A stretch of 64,000 nt of DNA from Neophaeotheca triangularis (Eukaryota), in NCBI GenBank assembly GCA_054600435.1, contig BAAIJX010000020.1, forward strand, positions 124,001 to 188,000. The letters run 5' to 3'. The notes beneath the pieces are model-generated. The model was given only the letters and a program-made list of their open reading frames with translations, did no database searches and was not told where the DNA came from. Below are positions 48,803 through 64,000 of this stretch, one piece after another. The stretch's first letter is position 1, and each line of letters opens with the position of its first letter. A program made the translations under genes and the position numbers.

Positions 48803-50467
48803 TCAAGACCACCTTTCTACTTCCTGAGCTGAAGTCCTTGGCTCCAACAACAGCTCGCCCACCGGCTTTCCTTGCTGGCCGAACCCACCCGCCGAAGAAT
48901 GCACCTTCCTTCCACGCACCCAAGTCTCAGTCACTACACCTTTCAGAGTCTTGCCCTGATACGCTGAGATAGTGTTCCTGAACAGCATAGTGCTCTTCTG
49001 TACGAGGAACTCCGCAGAATCGTCGAAGACGGCCACATCGCCGTCAAAGCCTACTTGCAAAGAGCCCTTGCGGTCCTCCAATCCTACCTGCAGAGCAGTC
49101 GCCACGCTGCACAGTCTGACGACGTTTAGGAGTGTGTCGTTCACCGCGAGCCCACGTCTCATAGCTTCGGTCCAGAGGATAGGAAGGCCAAGACCAACAG
49201 AGCTGACGCCACCCCATGCTTCGAGGAAATCGCCTGCCTCGTTGGGGGCAGTCTCGTTACTCTTCGTTCCCGGGACGTCGGCTGGCAGAAGCTTGAGGTC
49301 TGGCGTGCAGGGAGAGTGATCTGAAACCACGGTCTTGATCACGCTGTCTTCCCGCTCGAGCATCTCGCTCCACAAGGTGTCCTGGTTCGACTGCTCGCGG
49401 ATCGGGGGAGCGCACTTGTGCCTCGTGTCTCCGTTCTCGATCTGTTCGGCTGCGAGACTGAGATAGTGGAAGCATGTCTCAGCTGTGATCTTGACGCCTC
49501 TTTGGCGAGCCTCGCGGAGCATCGGGATAGCCTCCACTGCTGACAGATGCACGATGTGGAGAGGTAGGTTTGGCGCAAGGTGGGCCAAAGACAGGATTTC
49601 CTCAATGGCGGTAACTTCAAAGCTCGGGGGCCTCGTATCCAGGTAGGTTTGGTACTCCATCGGGTCTCCCATTGGTTCCCACGTTTGTTGGATAGAGGCG
49701 TTGGCAGCGGGCTCCTTTTCAGCGTGGAACATGACAGTCGTCGCCTGGTCGGCGAGTTCTGCAAGCGCTTTGGTGATGTCTTGGGCAGTTACAGGGGGGA
49801 ATTCGTCGACACCACTGTCCATCATGAAGCCCTTGAAACCCCTTACACCAGCAGCTATCAAAGGCTTGAGGTCTTTGTCGTTGCCGGGAATGAGGCCACC
49901 ATAGAAGCCAACGTCGACCCAGCACTGGCCTTGGGCTGCATCGATCTTTTCCTGGAAATTCGAGACATTGGTAGTCGGCGGGATAGCGTTCAATGGCATG
50001 TCAACAACAGTGGTGACACCACCAAAGGCTGCTGCCCGAGTGCCGTGCCAGAAGCCCTCCCATTCCGTACGGCCAGGCTCATTGAGATGCACGTGTGCGT
50101 CAACAAGGCCGGGCATGAGGATTTGCGGGCTGTAGTCATTGTACTCTGTGCCCGGAGGGAAGGAGGAAGCAGGCAGTACAGCCTCCACGACCTCGACAAT
50201 TTTACCCGTCTCTGTTGAGATGACAATGGTGGCCTCGCCGAGCTTGTCACCGACAACTGCGCGGCATGAAGCGAGTACGGTGACGTTGGAGGACGGAGCG
50301 AGCCCAGTATCCACGTGACAATCTCGATGGTTTTCCGTGCCTGCTGCAACTCGAGCTAGGTACTTGCCGTCAGTCGTGATTTTTTTACGCGATCAAGATG
50401 ATCTGATCAACTTACAGATGAGCAACAACGAGGTAGCAAGCTTGCCAAAAGTAGCGCTTCCCAACAT
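48803..50467 (-). CDS. DAL1: Allantoinase with predicted signal peptide; exons 50467-50416, 50355-48803
   Basis: PGLVDAHVHLNEPGRTEWEGF, GGVTTVVDMPLN, FHAE, ETCFHYL, KCAPPIR, SDHSP, AWGG. No in-frame ATG before the domain in exon 2; GTAAGT..CTGAC..TAG intron joins upstream ATG in frame. Confidence 0.9.
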
Positions 50468-50556
50468 GATAAGTAAGTAAACAAGGAAAAGACTTAGGTA
50501 CAGACTCAACCCCTGGTGCCAATGCCTCGAGCAAAGCCCTTGATATATCTAATATC

Positions 50557-50583
50557 CGTCAAGCACGTCAAGCACGTCAAGCA
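50557..50583. repeat. Three tandem copies of CGTCAAGCA (TGACG half-sites) about 90 nt upstream of the allantoinase ATG
   Basis: Direct reading: CGTCAAGCA CGTCAAGCA CGTCAAGCA. Confidence 0.85.
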
Positions 50584-50964
50584 GCAAACTTCGCGACATC
50601 GCCCTTGGCATGATGGGGCTTCCTCAAGGTTGGGTGCAGGTGCCCAGGCGCTAGCAAGTCTTGATAGAGGGTAGAAGTGTGCTGTATAGTTGAGATCAAC
50701 GAGGGACGCGAAGAGGCGATGGATCTTATTACTCGATAGCAATTCGAAAGCAAAGCCCGACACGGGGGGTGGAGTGGCGACAGCGGGTACTTGTTGAACT
50801 TTGAAATACTTCGGTTGCCGAGGGGTCCCGTAAGAGGTCCTGCCAGCAACCAACAAGTCTTTGCTTTCTTCTCAATAGAGCCTGGTAGCATGGGCGTAAG
50901 ACTTCTGGTCCAAGTCACAGCCATATGGACAACTCTGTGAGTGCAGCCTAATCGTCCATCCACC

Positions 50965-52250
50965 GGACAGCAAAACGCGGTATGAGATTTTGAATTTCAA
51001 AAAGGCGTCTTTTGGCCTTGATTTTCTATTACACTAAACATACGCGCACGCATACTATCTACTGCATTATTAATAGACTCTATTGGAATCAACGACCACG
51101 ATCTATTAGCTTCATGCCTTATATCCTCGACAGTAATACGCGCTTGCTTTCGAAACTCCGTTTTCGACATTCCCGCACATGTTTCGACTACCGATAGATC
51201 CGGTGATCCTTTCGTATTCACATAGTAGTCGAGGCCTATCTCTTTCTTATATTTAAGAACTGATTTTGCCTTATGTGCACCGTCCCTATCCTCCTCGAGT
51301 ATAAAGTCATCGCCACGATCGAGCATAGGCTTAATATGCTCCCGTAGAAGCTGTTTATAAACCGTTGCGTTCATTTTGCCGTTATCGTTCGTAGGCATAG
51401 TATACTCGATTATATCGGGCTTATAGTTATAGCCGATAATAGCGAGAAAGTGGACGTTTTTCGTAGGTTCATCGTCTCGTTCTCCGTTATCGCGAATAGG
51501 CCCTTGTTTTGTCTTTGTCTTTCGTTGTTTTCGACGAATAGCATCCGGCTTTGTCCTTTCGTGTAGACCTTTCTTTCGATAGATATAGTGTCGCTCCTCC
51601 TCTCTACTGTAGCCGTAGTGAAACTCGTCGAGAAAGCGTATCTTCTGGTATGCCTCTTTCGTCGGGAATTTATCGAGAAACCACTTCGCGAATTTAACAC
51701 GTTCAAAAGCGTCTTTTTCGTCTACCTCTTCGCGCGTAAGAGCAATAGCACGCCTATAGCCTTTTTTAGCTAGATACCGTTGTATTGTCTTATCCGAAAT
51801 ACGCGGAAGATTTGCTTCGTACTGTAGAGCGCCGGAATCGAGATTATGCCCTTCGTAGCCATTATTTTCGATAACGTCAATAGCGTCGTTTATTTGCTCT
51901 TCGCCGAGCTGTAGAACATCGTCCCCTCGATACCCTCCTCGAGTCTCGTTTTCTAATAGTCGGCGAGAGCGTCCTTCGAGAAGAACCTTTGAAATTGTCG
52001 AGGTAGAGGTTTCGAAGCATTCCGCGAGTGCATCTTGTTTTCGCTTTTCGAGTTTTCCGTGATTATTTTCGAGGTATCCGAGAAACTCGGCTGCTCCGAG
52101 GATTCTACTCTTCTTCGGAGTATCGAGGTGTTTAGGCATTACAGGTACATGTATTATAAGAAAGAGAGAGAGTCAAACGAGTCAAAAGAGTCGGATTGCG
52201 ACAATGCGACAAGCGGTCTTGGCACGCTTCTGTGCCGCGTTTTGCTGTCC
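50965..52250 (-). mobile_element. Tc1/mariner-superfamily DNA transposon, 1286 bp
   Basis: Perfect 16-bp inverted repeats GGACAGCAAAACGCGG (50965-50980) / CCGCGTTTTGCTGTCC (52235-52250) enclosing a transposase ORF; AT-richer than flanks. Confidence 0.85.
50997..52139 (-). CDS. DD34E (Tc1-type) transposase, 380 aa
   Basis: RFLDE (D1), FILEEDRDGAH (D2), SPDLSVVE (E) with 34 residues between D2 and E; HTH-like ISDKTIQRYL; INNAVDSM..R terminus. Confidence 0.9.
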   Translation of the reverse strand: MPKHLDTPKKSRILGAAEFLGYLENNHGKLEKRKQDALAECFETSTSTISKVLLEGRSRRLLENETRGGYRGDDVLQLGEEQINDAIDVIENNGYEGHNLDSGALQYEANLPRISDKTIQRYLAKKGYRRAIALTREEVDEKDAFERVKFAKWFLDKFPTKEAYQKIRFLDEFHYGYSREEERHYIYRKKGLHERTKPDAIRRKQRKTKTKQGPIRDNGERDDEPTKNVHFLAIIGYNYKPDIIEYTMPTNDNGKMNATVYKQLLREHIKPMLDRGDDFILEEDRDGAHKAKSVLKYKKEIGLDYYVNTKGSPDLSVVETCAGMSKTEFRKQARITVEDIRHEANRSWSLIPIESINNAVDSMRARMFSVIENQGQKTPF

Positions 52251-52566
52251 TCACCTTGTCGTCACAATATGTCAGGGTTAGGGTTTGAGTTTAATGGGGG
52301 CTCCGGCAAGGATTCGATCCATGCCAACATGCGTCTAGACATCCGCGAGCTCTTGCACTTTCAACTACGCATACAAGAAGCTTCTGTTCGACTTGTCGAT
52401 GAGCGCTCGGATCAGCTCCTGCATGTGTGCGTGTACCTCATCATCCACATGTAGGTCCTCTCGACTGTGCGAGTAAACTCGGCATTCTGATTGTCGTCTG
52501 GGCCCCCAGTCAATCGTCCAGTCGGAATGCGTTGCCCAGAGGCATTTCAGCCAAACCTCGTATCCC

Positions 52567-52738
52567 TTATCAGTCGAGACGAACATGCATGCATACACCC
52601 TGTCAAGAGCCTGCGAAGAAGCCTGACTCTGTATTGCTAGCGGAAGACTTGAGCAACACGCCCGATAGATTGTAGAGGTACACTGCGATAGTAGCTATCG
52701 TCACCTAATCACTCCAGACCTGGTATCCCTCGCTATCA
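52567..52738. promoter_or_regulatory. HGATAR (AreA/Nit2-type) site cluster upstream of the ammonium transporter
   Basis: TTATCA 52567, CGATAG 52663, inverted pair CGATAG-TAG-CTATCG 52686-52700, CTATCA 52733. Confidence 0.5.
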
Positions 52739-52963
52739 GACTCAAAAGCTACCTCGCCTTTCAACGGTAAGCTTGATGAAACAAAAAGCTCTCTATCCGC
52801 CCCTACCATCACAGCACCCAAAGCTCTCTACTTTCCCTTTCTGCAAGGCTATTCTTTTGCCTGTCAAAGACGCCGTGCTTAGAACGCAAGTGCCGCTAAG
52901 CCCAGGAGCTCACCTAAATAGACTTCCAGAAAAAAAAAAAAAGAGCCGTATCGTACCATCAAT

Positions 52964-54731
52964 ATGAGCGACGCAGGAGAGATCGCTCCAGTGACCGAAT
53001 GGCCCAACTACAACGACGACCCTCGCGGCGGCGACCCCTTGACCCAAGACCTCAACGCCCCTTACGATAAAGTGCGCACCCAATCCCCTCACCCGCAGCA
53101 TTTCAACCAAACTAACAATCTCAAACCCGCAAAGGGCGACCTAGCCTGGGTCCTCTGCTGCGCAATCTTCTGCTGGATCATCACGCCCGCCATCGGCTTC
53201 CTGTACGCGGGTATGCACCGGCGCAAGGCCATGCTGACAATGGTCTTCCAATCCCTCTTCTGCGCCAGCGCGTGCGGGATTCAGTACTGGATTTATGGCT
53301 ACTCGCTGTACATGAGCCATACGACGAACCCGGTCTTGGGCGACATGTCGCTCGTGGTGCTGCATGATGTGCTTGCGCAGCCGAGTCTTGCCAACGATGA
53401 TATCCCGGATTTGCTGTGTGAGTTTTTCGCAGAGTTGGGATTGGGTGGCTGTGTTTGGTAGGTCGCTGATCGATGCTTGTTGGGTAGATGCGTGTTTTGG
53501 CTTCACCTTTGTGACGGCCACGGCGATGATTCTGGCCGGTGCTATGCTAGAGCGCGGCCGGCTTTGGCCTAGCATGCTCTTCCTGCTGTGCTGGACGACG
53601 GTGAGCTCCGCTTCGGCTCCGCTTCTTCCCAGCGCTGACTGCTCGACATAGTTCGTCTACTACGTCCTCGCCTACTGGGAATGGAATCCCTCCGGCTGGC
53701 TCTACAACCTAGGCGTCTACGACTATGCCGGCAGCGGCCCAGTGCACATCGCCAGCGGCTTCGGCGCCCTGGCCTGGAGCATGATGCTCGGACCGCGCAT
53801 CCCCGACACCACGGCCGAGACTCGCAAGAAGATGGTGCACTTCAAACCGCACAACCCCTTCGTCATGTGCCTGGGCACCATCATCATTTGGTTCGGGTAA
53901 GGCTTTGCCATCCAAATCCCCTTTCAACCCTCACGCGCCAGCTAAAACTCCCACCTTCCCAGCTGGTTCGCCTTCAACGGCGCAAGCACGGCAAACCTCA
54001 GCCTCCGCTCCATCTACGTCGTCATCAACACGAACCTCGCGGCGTGCGGCGGGGGCATAGGCTGGGTGCTGCTGAGCTACCTACACGAAAAGAAATTCAG
54101 CCTGCTCGGCTTCTGCAGCGGCATCATAGCAGGACTAGTCGGCATCACGCCAGCGGCGGGCTTCGTGCCGGTCGAAGTGGCCGCGCTCGTGGGCCTGCTA
54201 ACCAGCGTCTGCAGTTTCCACGTCAACAGGTACAAGTACCTGCTCTCCATCGACGAAGGCATGGATATCTTCGCCATACACGGGATGGGAGGCTTTGTCG
54301 GGGATATTCTGACCGGGTTTTTCGCCGCGGATTTCGTGCCCGCGCTCGATGGCGTTTCCGGGACTAGCTACGCTGGCGGTTGGTGGAATGGCAACTGGAT
54401 CCAGATGGGCTACCAGTTGGCTGCGGCTTTCACGTGCGCCGCGTGGTCCTTTGGCGTCAGTTGCGTGTTGCTTTTCGTTATTGATAAGATTCCTGGTTTG
54501 AGGATTAGAGCTAGCGAGGAGGATGAGGTGCGTGGGCTGGATTGCAAGTATCTTGATGATGTTGAGTGGGATGATTTTCATTCTAATGGGTGGACGACGC
54601 CGGCGAGGGACGCGGAAGTGGGGGTGCTGGAGGGGAGGCGCGCAGGTGCGAGCGTGCGGAGGCTCTCTGAGCCCGCAAAGTTGGAGAAGGGGGCGGAGCC
54701 ACCTTCGATGCAGGGGACGAAGACCGATTGA
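52964..54731 (+). CDS. Ammonium transporter (Amt/Mep); introns 53072-53134, 53418-53487, 53601-53651, 53897-53962
   Basis: TPAIGFLYAG, GAMLERGR, DYAGSGPVHIASG, IWFGWFAFNG, GLVGITPAAG, FAIHG; spliced frame is continuous. Confidence 0.93.
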
Positions 54732-61671: not shown

Positions 61672-62577
61672 CTAATTCTCCCGATCCCTGTCCCCACAAA
61701 ATCCCATGCCCCCCAAACCACTGCTCTCCCCCTCCAACAACCTCCCCACTTCCACCCTCGCAATCTCATCTTCCTCACTCCCCCAATCGTGACCCTGCTC
61801 CCTAGCCTCCTGCCTCTGATCCTGCAGCACGATTTCCACAATCATGCACTTGAACCGCTCGTTCTGGAGCTCCAGGAACAAGACCTCTTTCTCGCGGTCG
61901 CGTTTCGTTTCGAAGAGCTGGGACTTGAGAGAGGTGTTTTGGGAGCGTAGAGAGGTGAGAGTGGAGCGCAAGTGGTAGTTTTGTTGGAGCAGTTGGGGGT
62001 GCGGGTCGGGTTGGTCGGGGGAGAAGAGGGCGCGGAGGTTGAGAGTGTGGCGGCGCGCGGTGCGGCGGTTTTGGCTGCCGGAGTCGGGGATCGTGGGGTC
62101 GGTTTGCGGGCCGTGGGCTTGGGTTTCGAGGTGCCAGCGAAGGTGTCGGTTGGTTAGGGGTATGGAGACTGTGAGGGGGGTGGAGGGGTCGATGTTTTCG
62201 GTCGAGGGCGCGCAGAGGCCGCAGGCTATGGGGGTTGTGGGGGTATCTGATGGTTGTTGTGCTGGGGAGTGGGTTTGGGCTTCTTGGATACGGGTGCTGG
62301 AGCGGCCAAGGCGGGTGAAGTAACGGCCGCGGCGCATAGGGCTCGGGATCGAGGATGAGGAGGACGTTATGCTGGAACGTGGTTCCGGGGAGCTGGGCAG
62401 CTCGGGGGAGGTGGGTCGGGTCAAAGGCATTGCTGTTCGGCGGCCGGACGAAGAGGAGCGCGAGGAGTCTCGGGTCTGAGGCAAGGATGGTTCGAAGACC
62501 GTGGAGTCTATCGTGTCGTTGGTCCTAGCACTCTCCACGCCAGGATCCGGCTTGCGCTTGAAGATGGAAGAGAACAT
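61672..62577 (-). CDS. Hypothetical Ser/Pro/Arg-rich protein with C-terminal coiled coil
   Basis: 301-aa ATG-initiated ORF with the same 5' C-rich / 3' G-rich bias as neighbouring genes; heptad-like LRSTLTSLRSQNTSLKSQL. Confidence 0.7.
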   Translation of the reverse strand: MFSSIFKRKPDPGVESARTNDTIDSTVFEPSLPQTRDSSRSSSSGRRTAMPLTRPTSPELPSSPEPRSSITSSSSSIPSPMRRGRYFTRLGRSSTRIQEAQTHSPAQQPSDTPTTPIACGLCAPSTENIDPSTPLTVSIPLTNRHLRWHLETQAHGPQTDPTIPDSGSQNRRTARRHTLNLRALFSPDQPDPHPQLLQQNYHLRSTLTSLRSQNTSLKSQLFETKRDREKEVLFLELQNERFKCMIVEIVLQDQRQEAREQGHDWGSEEDEIARVEVGRLLEGESSGLGGMGFCGDRDREN

Positions 62578-62785
62578 CGCCAGAGCTGGGGGTATGGAAC
62601 GCTGAGTCGGGTACCAATGTCCGGAGTTGAAGGGGTAAGCTCAGCTAACAAAATTTTACCTAAGATATAGATCAGTGTTGTAGAGAAAAGGTTGAACTAC
62701 TTAGCAGAGTTTCTATAGTAAGATAAGGGATAACCACTGTAGTCGTCCGTCAATATACGGTGCTTTAGCACACGTTTCTATGTGC

Positions 62786-63072
62786 TGTCCTCGCGGACAG
62801 CGCACTATTACTAACAGTACTACGTACTTTAGTAAAGTCCCGTGGTCCTAAGCAAACTTATTTTCGATAGGTAGGGGTTTTATATGTCCTTGTAGCTATT
62901 GTATTGTTACTAACCCTACTAAGTGGTTTAGTAAAGTCTTGTAGTCTTAAGCAAACCATTTTCCGATAGTAAGGCGTGTTTGATGTCCTTATAGCTATCG
63001 TATAGTTACTGACCCTACTACGTGGTTTAATAAAGTCCCCTAGTCCTTAGCAAACTATCTTCTCATAGTAGG
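62786..63072. repeat. Degenerate 99-bp tandem repeat, about 3 copies, RIP-like
   Basis: TGTCCT at 62786/62885/62984; ARTAAAGTC at 62831/62930/63029; AGCAAAC in each copy; many C/T and G/A differences. Confidence 0.85.
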
Positions 63073-63183
63073 AGCTCAACGTGACCTCGAAGAGTCTCCG
63101 CTGTGCATCTGTGGCTAGTCTGTTAGCACTTAGTCTTCATGATGCCATTGGCATCTTACTTGCATCAGAGCGAATCTCCCTGT

Positions 63184-64000
63184 CTACTTTCCCTCGGCGT
63201 CCCTTCTCTTATTCCACTCACAGCACTCAGAGAACGCAACGCCTTTTCCCCCAAAGATATCCAAAGCACTTCCAATGGTAAGATCAACCTTGCCCCCCGA
63301 CAGCCGCTCAACAAGTTCCAGATCCTGCAAATTCCTTCCACCACCAGCGTAAGTCACAGGGATACTACAAATCTCTGCCAAAAATCCAACGAGCTCCTCA
63401 TCGATACCCTTCTGCAAACCCTCGGCGTCCGCGGCGTGGATGAGGAACTCGCTACAGTAGGGCTCCAAGAGCGCGATATTGTCCTTGGTGATTTCGAAGT
63501 CCGTGATGGTCTGCCATTTGTCCATGGCCACTCGCCAGCCGTTACCCACGCGACGGCAGCTGAGGTCGATGACGAGTTGGGAAGTTTCGCCACCGAGGTT
63601 TTCGAGTACGGATTGGAGGCGTGGGAGGGAGAAGGTCCCAGAGGGGAAGAGGAAAGATGTTATTATGACCTACTGCTCAGCGTTAGAGTCATTCGTTAAG
63701 CAAAGATGGAAGAGGATGCAAAGGTAGCGTACCCTTTCAGCACCTGCATCGATCCAGTCTTTGGCATTGCTGTCTTTGATGCCGCCGCCGACTTGCAAGC
63801 CTTGGGGCCATGCTGATAGTGCTTCTTTCGCTGCCGTGTCGTTTCCGGGGCCTAACATAATGACATGACCGCCTCTTAGCTCATTGAGGCGGTAGAGATC
63901 GGCATAGTATGCGGATGGATGCTCGGATGTGTAGTTGGTCTTGAGCTCTGCCGCGACTGTAGTCAAGGAGCCTCCGACAATCTGCTTCACAGAGCCTGCG
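63184..64000 (-). CDS. HIS6: ProFAR isomerase His6 (5' end beyond window); intron 63732-63670
   Basis: VKQIVGG, GGHVIMLGPGN, LQVGGGI, VAMDKWQ, EFLIHAADAEG, TYAGG, VDLTIGSALDIFGG. Confidence 0.95.

Follow-up and report, generated by a model that had tools for sequence, protein, structure and literature searches.

How can a transposase gene with a RIP-like composition still read open from end to end? RIP is seen as a nearly terminal defence that kills a duplicated element by mutation; it turns TGG (Trp), CAR (Gln) and TGY (Cys) codons into stops or Tyr, a Trp codon always into a stop, and it is widespread in Dothideomycetes. The stretch analysed here, a window of 64 kb, contains one such gene. 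The host is a black-yeast-like fungus and a member of Dothideomycetes, and a neighbouring allantoinase ORF is 100% identical to an NCBI protein from Neophaeotheca triangularis.

Results

Anatomy of the element

The initial annotation had described an intact frame with two Trp and two Cys and a D,D34E triad, and both descriptions were borne out. The 380 codons of the ORF (50997..52139, minus strand; protein P0001) contain no stop, the Trp residues are W153 and W348 and the Cys residues C41 and C321. In an alignment with Sleeping Beauty SB100X, D171, D284 and E319 fall on its SDE, HDND and IEN motifs, and the 34 residues between D284 and E319 correspond to the DD34E spacing. This single transposase gene is flanked by terminal inverted repeats (TIRs) within the 50957-52258 element (Table 1). 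The 16-nt TIR core at 50965-50980 is 100% complementary to 52235-52250, and 18 of the 24 positions of the whole arms match when read by eye; a search for the core across the 64-kb window returned the two arms of the element and no further copies. The CA...TG termini agree with those of relatives, and the layout CA...GACAGCAAAA...CG is similar to that of their TIRs. Upstream of the ATG, the coding strand of 52140-52234 carries TTGTCGCA and TGACTC, each twice, as well as TATAA, motifs that may be promoter elements; the composition of this upstream region is not RIP-like.

Table 1. Coordinates of the transposon, its parts and its target site (positions in the window).
Feature	Position	Strand	Basis or remark
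Target site duplication TCGTC, left copy	50952..50956		same letters as 52259-52263
Target site duplication TCGTC, right copy	52259..52263		same letters as 50952-50956
Transposon, 1302 bp, termini 5'-CA...TG-3'	50957..52258	-	empty-site joints and loose ends of the second locus
Left terminal inverted repeat CATCCACCGGACAGCAAAACGCGG	50957..50980	+	16-nt perfect core 50965-50980
Right terminal inverted repeat, reverse complement CAAGGTGAGGACAGCAAAACGCGG	52235..52258	-	pairs with left arm
Transposase ORF, 380 aa (P0001)	50997..52139	-	N-terminal helix-turn-helix region and DDE catalytic domain, D171/D284/E319
5' non-coding region before ATG	52140..52234	-	putative promoter

Family assignment and target duplication

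P0001 scores under the Pfam gathering cut-offs both for DDE_3 (E 2.1e-4; 21.6 bits, cut-off 28.6) and for HTH_Tnp_Tc3_2 (E 2.3e-4; 21.8 bits, cut-off 31.5). Among the 16 members of A1, DDE_3 is matched by 13 at E <= 0.01 (best 2.8e-8) and the HTH by 10, and the family profile matches the SB100X catalytic domain with an E of 1.5e-25 and all three catalytic residues aligned. The AF2 model of P0001 has a mean pLDDT of 81.5; its top Foldseek matches are 5cr4 (E 5.5e-10, TM by target 0.73) and Mos1, and its best structural matches are SB, Mos1 and SETMAR. The predicted fold is RNase-H-like and nearest to solved Tc1/mariner transposases, and the catalytic domain of this fungal family is Tc1/Sleeping-Beauty-like (DD34E).

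The assignment to Tc1 DD34E in the initial annotation therefore stands for the catalytic fold and triad and fails for the target, where 5 bp and not TA are duplicated. The two insertions in the source genome are flanked by 5-bp duplications, TCGTC at this locus and CCTGC at the second one, and an exact 5-bp duplication lies beside the CA..TG termini at 15 of 42 relatives' loci versus 0 of 42 in a displaced control. The whole family thus duplicates 5 bp of variable sequence, and the insertion at TA with TA duplication that characterizes Tc1/mariner is absent from this element. A literature search for Tc1-like elements with 5-bp duplications found no description; with Repbase and Dfam outside its scope, the word undescribed is used here provisionally.

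Insertion polymorphism and copy number

The source run (X1) was compared with a run from another sample of the same organism (X2) and with an air metagenome (X3). In contigs of X2 and X3 the element is missing and 50951 is connected to 52259; this is an exact empty site with one TCGTC, and the five letters at the joint fit either side. A second contig of X1 holds 50956-51136 (19 other letters, 2 gaps), followed by 21 other letters and then by 52210-52243; this contig and contig 5 have flanks of their own, whose last and first five letters both read CCTGC. Over the 181 nt that the element shares with this derivative, the differences are mixed transitions and transversions. The depth of a 45-nt unitig over 52214-52258 is 254.7, about twice the 126-131 of the flanking contigs, and two contigs run from it into different flanks. 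A further run of the same study (X4) yielded short diverged pieces only. No second full-length copy was seen in the Logan contigs of the source genome, from which the copy number was taken, contig depth not being equal to copy number. Apparently, one full-length copy and one deleted derivative of about 250 bp are present in the source genome, and therefore the element is probably outside the substrate range of RIP at present. The insertion is polymorphic between samples, and the element is presumably active now.

Dinucleotide composition of the ORF

The RIP-like composition that had been noticed by eye was confirmed by the indices. In the ORF, GC is 0.443, TpA/ApT 1.07, (CpA+TpG)/(ApC+GpT), hereafter the CpA index, 0.64, CpG o/e 1.78 and TpA o/e 1.10, versus 0.548, 0.72, 1.22, 0.94 and 0.66 in the 64-kb window; the left and right flanks have TpA/ApT of 0.71 and 0.74 and CpA indices of 1.22 and 1.33. 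Both ORF indices pass the RIP thresholds as quoted in PMC4188875, and a 500-bp sliding scan of the 64 kb found the ORF to be the sole stretch with a CpA index <0.85. This composition exceeds what codon usage gives, since permutation of synonymous codons misses the observed counts at codon boundaries: CpA+TpG occurs 22 times against 57.6 +/- 5.2 (none of 5000 permutations gave so few), T|A 54 times against 35.4 and C|G 50 times against 30.8.

A metagenome scan supplied 80 relatives' loci, all of them distant Trp-rich relatives (27-36% identity) and none from the Trp-poor clade described below. Their CpA index has a median of 1.305 (minimum 0.83) and their CpG o/e a median of 0.88 (maximum 1.38), so that the ORF lies beyond the range of all 80 in both measures. 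Eight of these loci pass the RIP thresholds and seven of the eight have stops in the matched frame; L055 (index 0.98) is a borderline RIP-positive relative without stops. Within the element, the two terminal 100-bp bins hold 13 CpA+TpG each and the interior bins 5-10, with a window mean of 13.3 per 100 bp. For the 159 non-coding bases, the CpA index is 1.15 and TpA/ApT 0.67. The ends thus bear no RIP footprint, which we assume to reflect constraint on the TIRs and the promoter. TCGA is in five-fold excess in the element, with 22 sites per strand.

Silent and protein-changing sites

Third-position pyrimidines before A are 54 T : 2 C in the ORF (96% converted) versus 320 : 1042 (23% T; p 2.5e-30) in the host, represented here and below by 15 crude ORFs of at least 300 aa in the window and not by annotated genes. 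Before C the ratio is 31 T : 9 C (host 42% T, p 1e-5), before T it is 7 T : 17 C (not significant) and before G 20 T : 50 C, without a shift towards T. Third-position purines after T are 12 A : 2 G (host 26% A) and those after C, 18 A : 24 G, are unchanged (host 45% A); CTG, TTG and GTG occur 0, 1 and 1 times among 43 Leu and Val codons. The fraction of T before A is 0.14-0.74 in 30 intact ORFs of relatives. These shifts are specific to context and found on both strands, their direction being read against the codon usage of host and relatives and not against an ancestor. CpC as the second preference is not the order known for RIP in Neurospora.

Non-synonymous RIP targets are kept in the ORF, namely 18 NCA codons, 20 T|G boundaries and 22 CAN codons, and GCA amounts to 8/23 versus 18% in the host. 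Selection against RIP targets at silent sites was considered as an explanation and rejected, as NCA codons are not depleted and the 20 T|G boundaries are left. When RIP was simulated neutrally on 30 intact relatives, a per-site mutation of 20% left 0.4% of the copies free of stops, and from 30% upwards none of 6000 was; the intact frame is thus not luck, because the simulation leaves almost no stop-free copies. The codon data directly show RIP mutation together with purifying selection, with synonymous targets saturated and non-synonymous ones kept.

A tryptophan-poor clade

P0001 to P0004 and P0009 constitute one five-member group with a local support of 100. These proteins have 0-2 Trp each versus at least 4 in the 70 other full-length relatives, and they also have fewer Cys and Gln. 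The consensus residue is kept by the clade in 2 of 45 cells of Trp columns, in 10% of Cys, 10% of Gln and 50% of other columns. Four contexts in P0001 had been proposed as places where fungal Tc1 proteins usually have Trp, and the alignment agrees: among 68 Trp-rich full-length relatives, Trp is found in 60/67 for AYQK, 45/66 for KPML, 55/67 for KYKK and 46/64 for ETCA. The loss of Trp at conserved positions that had been claimed for P0001 is also real and common to the five members; in P0001 itself 8 of 9 consensus-Trp columns are replaced (S102, E138, Y164, L232, M272, Y297, A322 and I335) and only W348 is kept. The nearest outgroup rows keep few of the nine columns as well (P0104 1/9, two rows 2/9, six rows 3/9), and the column-wise loss may in part predate the clade or reflect loose alignment; for this low retention, we put weight mainly on the total Trp counts.

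At conserved columns, amino-acid changes in the direction of RIP showed no clear excess in the clade, with forward : reverse counts of 8:6, 9:6, 10:9, 11:5 and 14:6 versus 6.3:4.5 in relatives, and 12 Gln and 2 Trp codons remain in P0001. The closest protein to P0001 among 5.8 billion, encoded on a metagenome contig of 1431 bp, has just 62% identity; one close homologue, P0004, is from Elasticomyces elasticus, and a protein search with the Trp-poor alignment added only one new fragment (P0275). Proteins just 40-62% identical are alike depleted in Trp, Cys and Gln, so that the depletion is old. It fits lineage selection against codons that RIP turns into nonsense, without proving it, and the RIP state of the Trp-poor relatives is suggested by their amino-acid composition only.

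Discussion

Our findings suggest that the ORF is probably the transposase of an autonomous cut-and-paste transposon that moved recently and took RIP at its silent targets while its protein was spared. The mutator would be RIP, with C-to-T changes strongest at CpA, weaker at CpC and absent at CpG. These changes are almost complete wherever they are silent, with protein-changing targets and element ends preserved, and in the clade TGG, CAR and TGY codons are strongly depleted at positions that relatives conserve. Selection would have acted on the transposon and not on the host. Regarding the selection on RIP-lethal codons that the initial annotation had proposed, the part that concerns RIP with purifying selection is upheld, and an active purging of such codons goes no further than what the composition of one clade suggests.

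The initial annotation had also offered a domesticated transposase, kept by the host for a function of its own, so that host-level selection would hold the frame open. An intact frame in spite of a RIP-like composition is what such a gene would show, and the interior of the element does seem to be single-copy in the source assembly; however, domestication implies that TIRs and mobility are lost and that the gene sits at a fixed orthologous locus, whereas here the TIRs are intact and a target duplication is present, the empty site is exact in both X2 and X3, and elsewhere in the genome lies a deleted derivative that is itself flanked by a 5-bp duplication. Moreover, with the closest protein just 62% identical and located on a 1431-bp metagenome contig, no orthologue series is visible. 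Domestication is largely refuted by the presence/absence polymorphism, and we consider it very improbable. Even less credible, to the point of being negligible, is that one recent and light episode of RIP missed all damaging sites. RIP does differ in intensity, and other genes are known to have alleles that are still functional after light RIP; nevertheless, a light episode is at odds with synonymous C|A sites that are 96% converted (54 : 2), with simulated copies of which so few stay open already at 20% per-site mutation, and with a Trp, Cys and Gln depletion old enough to be common to distant proteins.

The composition itself could have a source other than RIP: an unusual dinucleotide or codon-pair bias of a donor genome after horizontal transfer, or else another context-dependent process, such as deamination linked to methylation in an element that was silenced, or selection at the mRNA level. 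Horizontal movement would be expected to give a clade as patchy as the present one, known mostly from metagenome contigs, and neither the CpC component nor the five-fold TCGA excess is textbook RIP; the ends of the element, in addition, are not depleted in CpA/TpG. Nevertheless, both the target and the product of RIP are seen in the ORF, where CpA/TpG is lost, TpA gained and CpG spared. Ordinary 5mC deamination does the inverse, removing CpG and adding TpG/CpA. The effect also acts across codon boundaries and symmetrically on both strands (Y3 before A, R3 after T), as a mutator at the DNA level would, and none of the 80 relatives' loci shows the pattern without stops save the borderline L055. 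We therefore judge these other sources unlikely and retain RIP at silent sites of a mobile element as the preferred reading.

It is possible, and we propose it tentatively, that the clade has been hardened against RIP and that its family is an undescribed Tc1-like DD34E branch with a 5-bp staggered cut not directed to TA. Under repeated RIP, lineage selection would replace practically every Trp codon, and the majority of those for Gln and Cys, by RIP-safe ones (Tyr/Phe/Leu/Ala, Arg/Lys), after which RIP could hardly create a stop any more. Such hardening, together with the exhaustion of silent sites, a small size and a very low copy number, would allow the element to persist and move in RIP-proficient Dothideomycetes. 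A transposase that took RIP at nearly every silent target, is yet open and mobile, and belongs to a lineage that has almost entirely lost Trp would allow the proposed arms race of RIP with transposons to be tested at the codon level, and it implies that masking by RIP indices can conceal live elements.

Like the RIP-degraded transposons of filamentous ascomycetes, the present ORF has both RIP indices past threshold and a GC below that of the surrounding DNA. Those transposons are normally full of stops, as are seven of the eight RIP-positive relatives found here, whereas the present element is open, mobile and altered only at silent or tolerated sites. The hypothesis that transposons evade RIP by shedding their target sites was put forward for Gypsy-like elements of Microbotryum (Horns et al., 2017; PMC5381629), and in our literature search on RIP with intact or selected transposases, or on escape from RIP, it was the only such idea found. 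That work deals with hypermutation of the TpCpG type in a retrotransposon of a basidiomycete, and no codon-level example accompanies the proposal. The clade described here resembles such a variant, although in this case it is CpA/TpG that is depleted, in a DNA transposon of an ascomycete. The shedding at silent sites can be demonstrated here and amounts to RIP run to completion, whereas the shedding of Trp, Gln and Cys we only infer. Of two other studies, one on Podospora speaks against an arms race in the case of crapaud (PMC10787394), and one is a Tc1-mariner survey in Sclerotinia without RIP (PMC4188875).

With the Tc1 family, as represented by Sleeping Beauty, the element shares its single ORF between TIRs, its length of about 1.3 kb, a Tc3-type HTH in the N-terminal part of P0001 (a weak Pfam match) and an RNase-H-like DDE domain with 34 residues from D to E. 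It differs in that P0001 does not reach the gathering cut-off of either Pfam family, DDE_3 or HTH_Tnp_Tc3_2, and has lost nearly all the Trp typical of the family, including that of the IENxW motif. If real, a 5-bp duplication away from TA by a Sleeping-Beauty-like transposase bears on the mechanism of target choice in the superfamily. A precedent for a non-TA target among relatives of Tc1/mariner is given by Tc4 and Tc5 of Caenorhabditis elegans, which duplicate TNA instead of TA; the 3 bp that they duplicate have a fixed core, and the transposases of Tc4 and Tc5 are different.

The transposase gene as part of a mobile element

The transposase ORF belongs to a mobile element and is not a host gene. 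The span of this element is defined by its terminal inverted repeat (TIR) arms and the flanking TCGTC pentamers, which mark its limits, and its non-coding DNA consists of 40 nt past the stop codon and 119 nt ahead of the ATG, one TIR arm falling within the latter.

Features of the element and its surroundings (window coordinates)
Feature	Position	Remarks
Transposase ORF	50997..52139	minus strand; open for 380 codons
TIR core, 16 nt, perfect	50965-50980 and 52235-52250	GGACAGCAAAACGCGG; inverted repeat search
TIR arms, 24 nt, imperfect	outer ends of the element	CA at start; 18/24 positions paired, read manually from the printed sequence
Target site duplication	50952-50956 and 52259-52263	TCGTC, immediately outside both arms
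Whole element	50957-52258	1302 bp
5' non-coding stretch	52140-52234	minus strand, before the ATG
Allantoinase ORF	48803-50116	neighbouring gene
Palindrome	62783-62803	GCTGTCC-TCGC-GGACAGC
Tandem repeat	62808-63062	period 99, 2.6 copies, 80% matches
Highest TpA/ApT of the window	62301-63400	1.44

When window positions 49500-53700 were compared with Logan contigs from four public runs, one contig each in X2 (another sample of the same organism) and X3 (an air metagenome run) was found to link 50951 straight to 52259; the five letters at the joint fit either side, as a single TCGTC, and the flanks are otherwise 95-99% alike to the window. In X1, the probable source run, a second contig matches 50956-51136 (with 19 other letters and 2 gaps) and 52210-52243, the two pieces being separated by 21 unrelated letters. 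Combined from two contigs, this second locus covers window positions 50956-51136 and 52210-52258 and has flanks that differ from those of the window; it is an internally deleted derivative of the element elsewhere, with its own 5-bp duplication, CCTGC, immediately on either side. The derivative is MITE-like, about 250 bp long, with a left arm about 10% diverged, and its changes are not RIP-like, since transitions and transversions are mixed. A 45-nt unitig over 52214-52258 has a depth of 254.7 versus 126-131 for four long contigs, and the contig bearing the window's left flank spans the entire element interior unbroken; from contig depth, which is not equivalent to copy number, we infer one full-length copy and one short derivative in the source. 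The TIRs, the TCGTC duplication, the exact empty site in X2 and X3 and the deleted derivative lead us to reject the domesticated gene that the initial annotation had offered as an alternative. As for the host, the neighbouring allantoinase ORF is 100% identical to a protein named by NCBI from Neophaeotheca triangularis, and its next-best named matches are from other Dothideomycetes.

Positions 3-8 of the TIR arms (50957-50964 versus 52251-52258) are unpaired, reading TCCACC and AGGTGA in inverted orientation, and CACC occurs on the same strand in both of these stretches. The right arm is similar to the CAAGTGGGTGAC termini of relatives, and the left arm looks like a small inversion. The 5' non-coding stretch is host-like in composition, without RIP character, and contains two TTGTCGCA direct repeats, a TATAA box about 20 nt upstream of the ATG and two TGACTC motifs, which we take to resemble Gcn4/AP-1-type sites. 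The palindrome in the window is similar to the element's two TIR core starts placed back to back; it may be due to chance, because a search with the 16-nt core, allowing up to three mismatches, gave no match there.

RIP-like mutation under purifying selection

The initial annotation had described an intact ORF with a DD34E triad, RIP-like composition and loss of Trp, and sequence analysis confirmed all of these parts.

Composition of the transposase ORF and of the window
Measure	ORF	Window
GC	0.443	0.548
TpA/ApT	1.07	0.72
(CpA+TpG)/(ApC+GpT), CpA index	0.64	1.22
CpG o/e	1.78	0.94

The ORF passes both standard RIP thresholds, 0.89 for TpA/ApT and 1.03 for the CpA index, as quoted in a passage of PMC4188875. 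In a sliding scan of the 64-kb window, the CpA index fell below 0.85 only at the ORF stretch. The stretch with the window's highest TpA/ApT has a merely mild CpA index (0.87), and the tandem repeat lies within an AT-rich spacer. Among 80 metagenome loci of distant, Trp-rich relatives, the CpA index has a median of 1.305 and a minimum of 0.83, and CpG o/e reaches at most 1.38. Eight of the 80 pass the RIP thresholds, seven of them with 1-5 stops in the matched frame, a crude count obtained by translating the matched range in a single frame. The Trp-rich, RIP-index-positive loci with 1-5 stops (L057, L074, L075, L077, L078, L065 and L032) resemble copies killed by RIP in the usual manner, and the element of the window contrasts naturally with them.

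The gene contains 76 CpA and TpG in total versus 128 ± 7 when its product, P0001, is recoded with host-like codons, and 33 of the 76 are unavoidable, being set by codons for Trp, Cys, Gln, His and Met. Synonymous codons were also shuffled among positions, which leaves codon usage as it is in the gene; across codon boundaries this predicts 57.6 ± 5.2 CpA and TpG versus 22 observed, a count as low as 22 occurring in 0 of 5000 permutations. The bias therefore acts on dinucleotides and is not one of codon preference.

Silent sites of the element and of host genes (15 crude ORFs of at least 300 aa within the window)
Site	Share	Element	Host
Pyrimidine before A	T	54:2 (96%)	23%
Pyrimidine before C	T	31:9 (78%)	42%
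Pyrimidine before T	T	7:17 (29%)	34%
Pyrimidine before G	T	20:50 (29%)	41%
Purine after T	A	12:2 (86%)	26%
Purine after G	A	21:10 (68%)	46%
Purine after A	A	47:38 (55%)	38%
Purine after C	A	18:24 (43%)	45%

The process is a strand-symmetric change of C to T that depends on the 3' base, far stronger at CpA than at CpC, stronger at CpC than at CpT, and absent at CpG. Its principal target and its product are the same as those of RIP, and the pattern runs opposite to that of ordinary CpG deamination. RIP targets whose mutation changes the protein are undepleted (18 NCA codons, 20 T|G boundaries, 22 CAN codons and 7 ATG codons), and GCA stands at 8/23 in the element versus 18% in host ORFs; the keeping of such targets is the prediction of mutation pressure filtered by purifying selection. 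Selection to remove every RIP target would not predict these undepleted non-silent sites. When neutral RIP was simulated on 30 intact ORFs from the relatives' loci, a few of which are probably flanking genes judging by their length, stop-free copies amounted to 6% when the per-site mutation rate was 10% and to 0.4% when it was 20%, and from 30% upwards none of 6000 copies was free of stops. Since silent C|A sites in the element are 96% converted and simulated copies are rarely stop-free, the open frame cannot be due to chance.

The ends of the element are without RIP-like composition, as CpA+TpG number 13 in both of its terminal 100-bp bins, equal to the window average, and the last bin has 1 TpA; this may be explained by a putative constraint on binding sites and promoter. 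Within the ORF, TCGA is about fivefold over-represented and, on a post hoc reading, may be the sequence left if CpA and CpC contexts are both mutable.

Depletion of Trp, Cys and Gln in the clade

Five of 75 full-length proteins (P0001, P0002, P0003, P0004 and P0009) group together with local support of 100 and a long stem in a midpoint-rooted FastTree tree, a grouping to which shared composition could contribute. P0002 is 62% identical to P0001, and P0004 is from Elasticomyces elasticus. Their Trp counts are 2, 1, 0, 0 and 0, respectively, and each of the other 70 proteins has at least 4 (mean 2.8%, about ten per protein as calculated from Trp percentages and lengths). Residues that can be encoded only with a CpA or TpG (W, C, Q, H and M) together make up 3-9% of the clade versus 10-19% of the others. 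At nine consensus-Trp columns, Trp occupies 2 of 45 cells in the clade, cells that are not independent events across the five proteins, versus 70% retention in the others. Consensus retention is likewise low at Cys (10% vs 66%) and Gln columns (10% vs 64%), and ordinary at His (54% vs 60%), Met (47% vs 60%) and the 173 remaining columns (50% vs 59%). Taken protein by protein, Trp is retained at 1/9, 1/9, 0/9, 0/8 and 0/9 versus 43-63% of other columns (p 0.003-0.02). Because several replacements are shared in the clade, namely Ala in the IENxW motif (5/5) and Tyr or Phe at two columns, much of the Trp loss goes back to a single episode on the stem. Outgroup rows closest to the clade likewise retain just 1-3 of the nine Trp columns, so part of the column-wise contrast comes from a wider subgroup or from the alignment.

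RIP makes stops from TGG or CAR, never sense codons, and it can also turn TGY into TAY. Since no sense codon arises from TGG or CAR in this way, the depletion needs lineage selection or a detour. Selection among lineages may have favoured fewer nonsense-prone codons; otherwise, the detour could have led via Cys (TGY to TAY) or via rescued stops. The P0001 gene retains 12 Gln and 2 Trp codons, and therefore this copy is not RIP-proof. The RIP-tolerant lineage proposed in the initial annotation is supported, in that the data show RIP together with purifying selection; hardening of the lineage is what we infer. The shedding of RIP targets by transposons is presented as a hypothesis in a passage of PMC5381629; in the part of the literature searched, no codon-level example was found in a DNA transposon.

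A Tc1-like family with 5-bp target duplications

P0001 matches DDE_3 and HTH_Tnp_Tc3_2 of Pfam below threshold only, and a search of 1.84 billion representatives found 801 relatives with E values of 1e-3 or lower. A profile of 16 relatives matches the Sleeping Beauty catalytic domain (E 1.5e-25), with D171, D284 and E319 of P0001 aligned to its catalytic residues at DD34E spacing, and the AlphaFold model (pLDDT 81.5 overall, and above 90 in most of the catalytic part) has Sleeping Beauty, Mos1 and SETMAR as its first structural matches. On account of this profile match, these residues and these structures, the enzyme is Tc1-like.

The whole family of ~1.3-kb Tc1-like elements gives exact 5-bp target duplications of variable sequence. 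In metagenome contigs, the TIRs of relatives follow the pattern CA(A/C)G..GGGTGACAAAAAAAGCCG, with CA(A/C)G at the start and an inner A-run followed by GCCG, and varied 5-bp direct repeats stand at the flanks. A scripted survey covered 42 loci at which a TIR pair could be called; at 15 of these (L004, L014, L016, L018, L019, L021, L026, L027, L034, L035, L055, L057, L062, L064 and L073) an exact 5-bp repeat directly flanked CA..TG termini, versus 0 of 42 in a control with the right flank shifted by 40 nt, and the remaining 27 uncurated loci mostly reflect mis-called boundaries or degraded copies. Exact repeats were also present at three further loci with CT termini. About half of the duplications seen start with CC by manual tally, and no TA target was seen in the family. 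A Tc1-like element with a 5-bp duplication was not found in the literature searched, which comprised papers and not the repeat databases Repbase and Dfam. This target duplication in a Sleeping-Beauty-like family is a finding additional to those of the initial annotation: the family shares its type of enzyme with Tc1 and differs from it in the target, where it leaves a 5-bp duplication.
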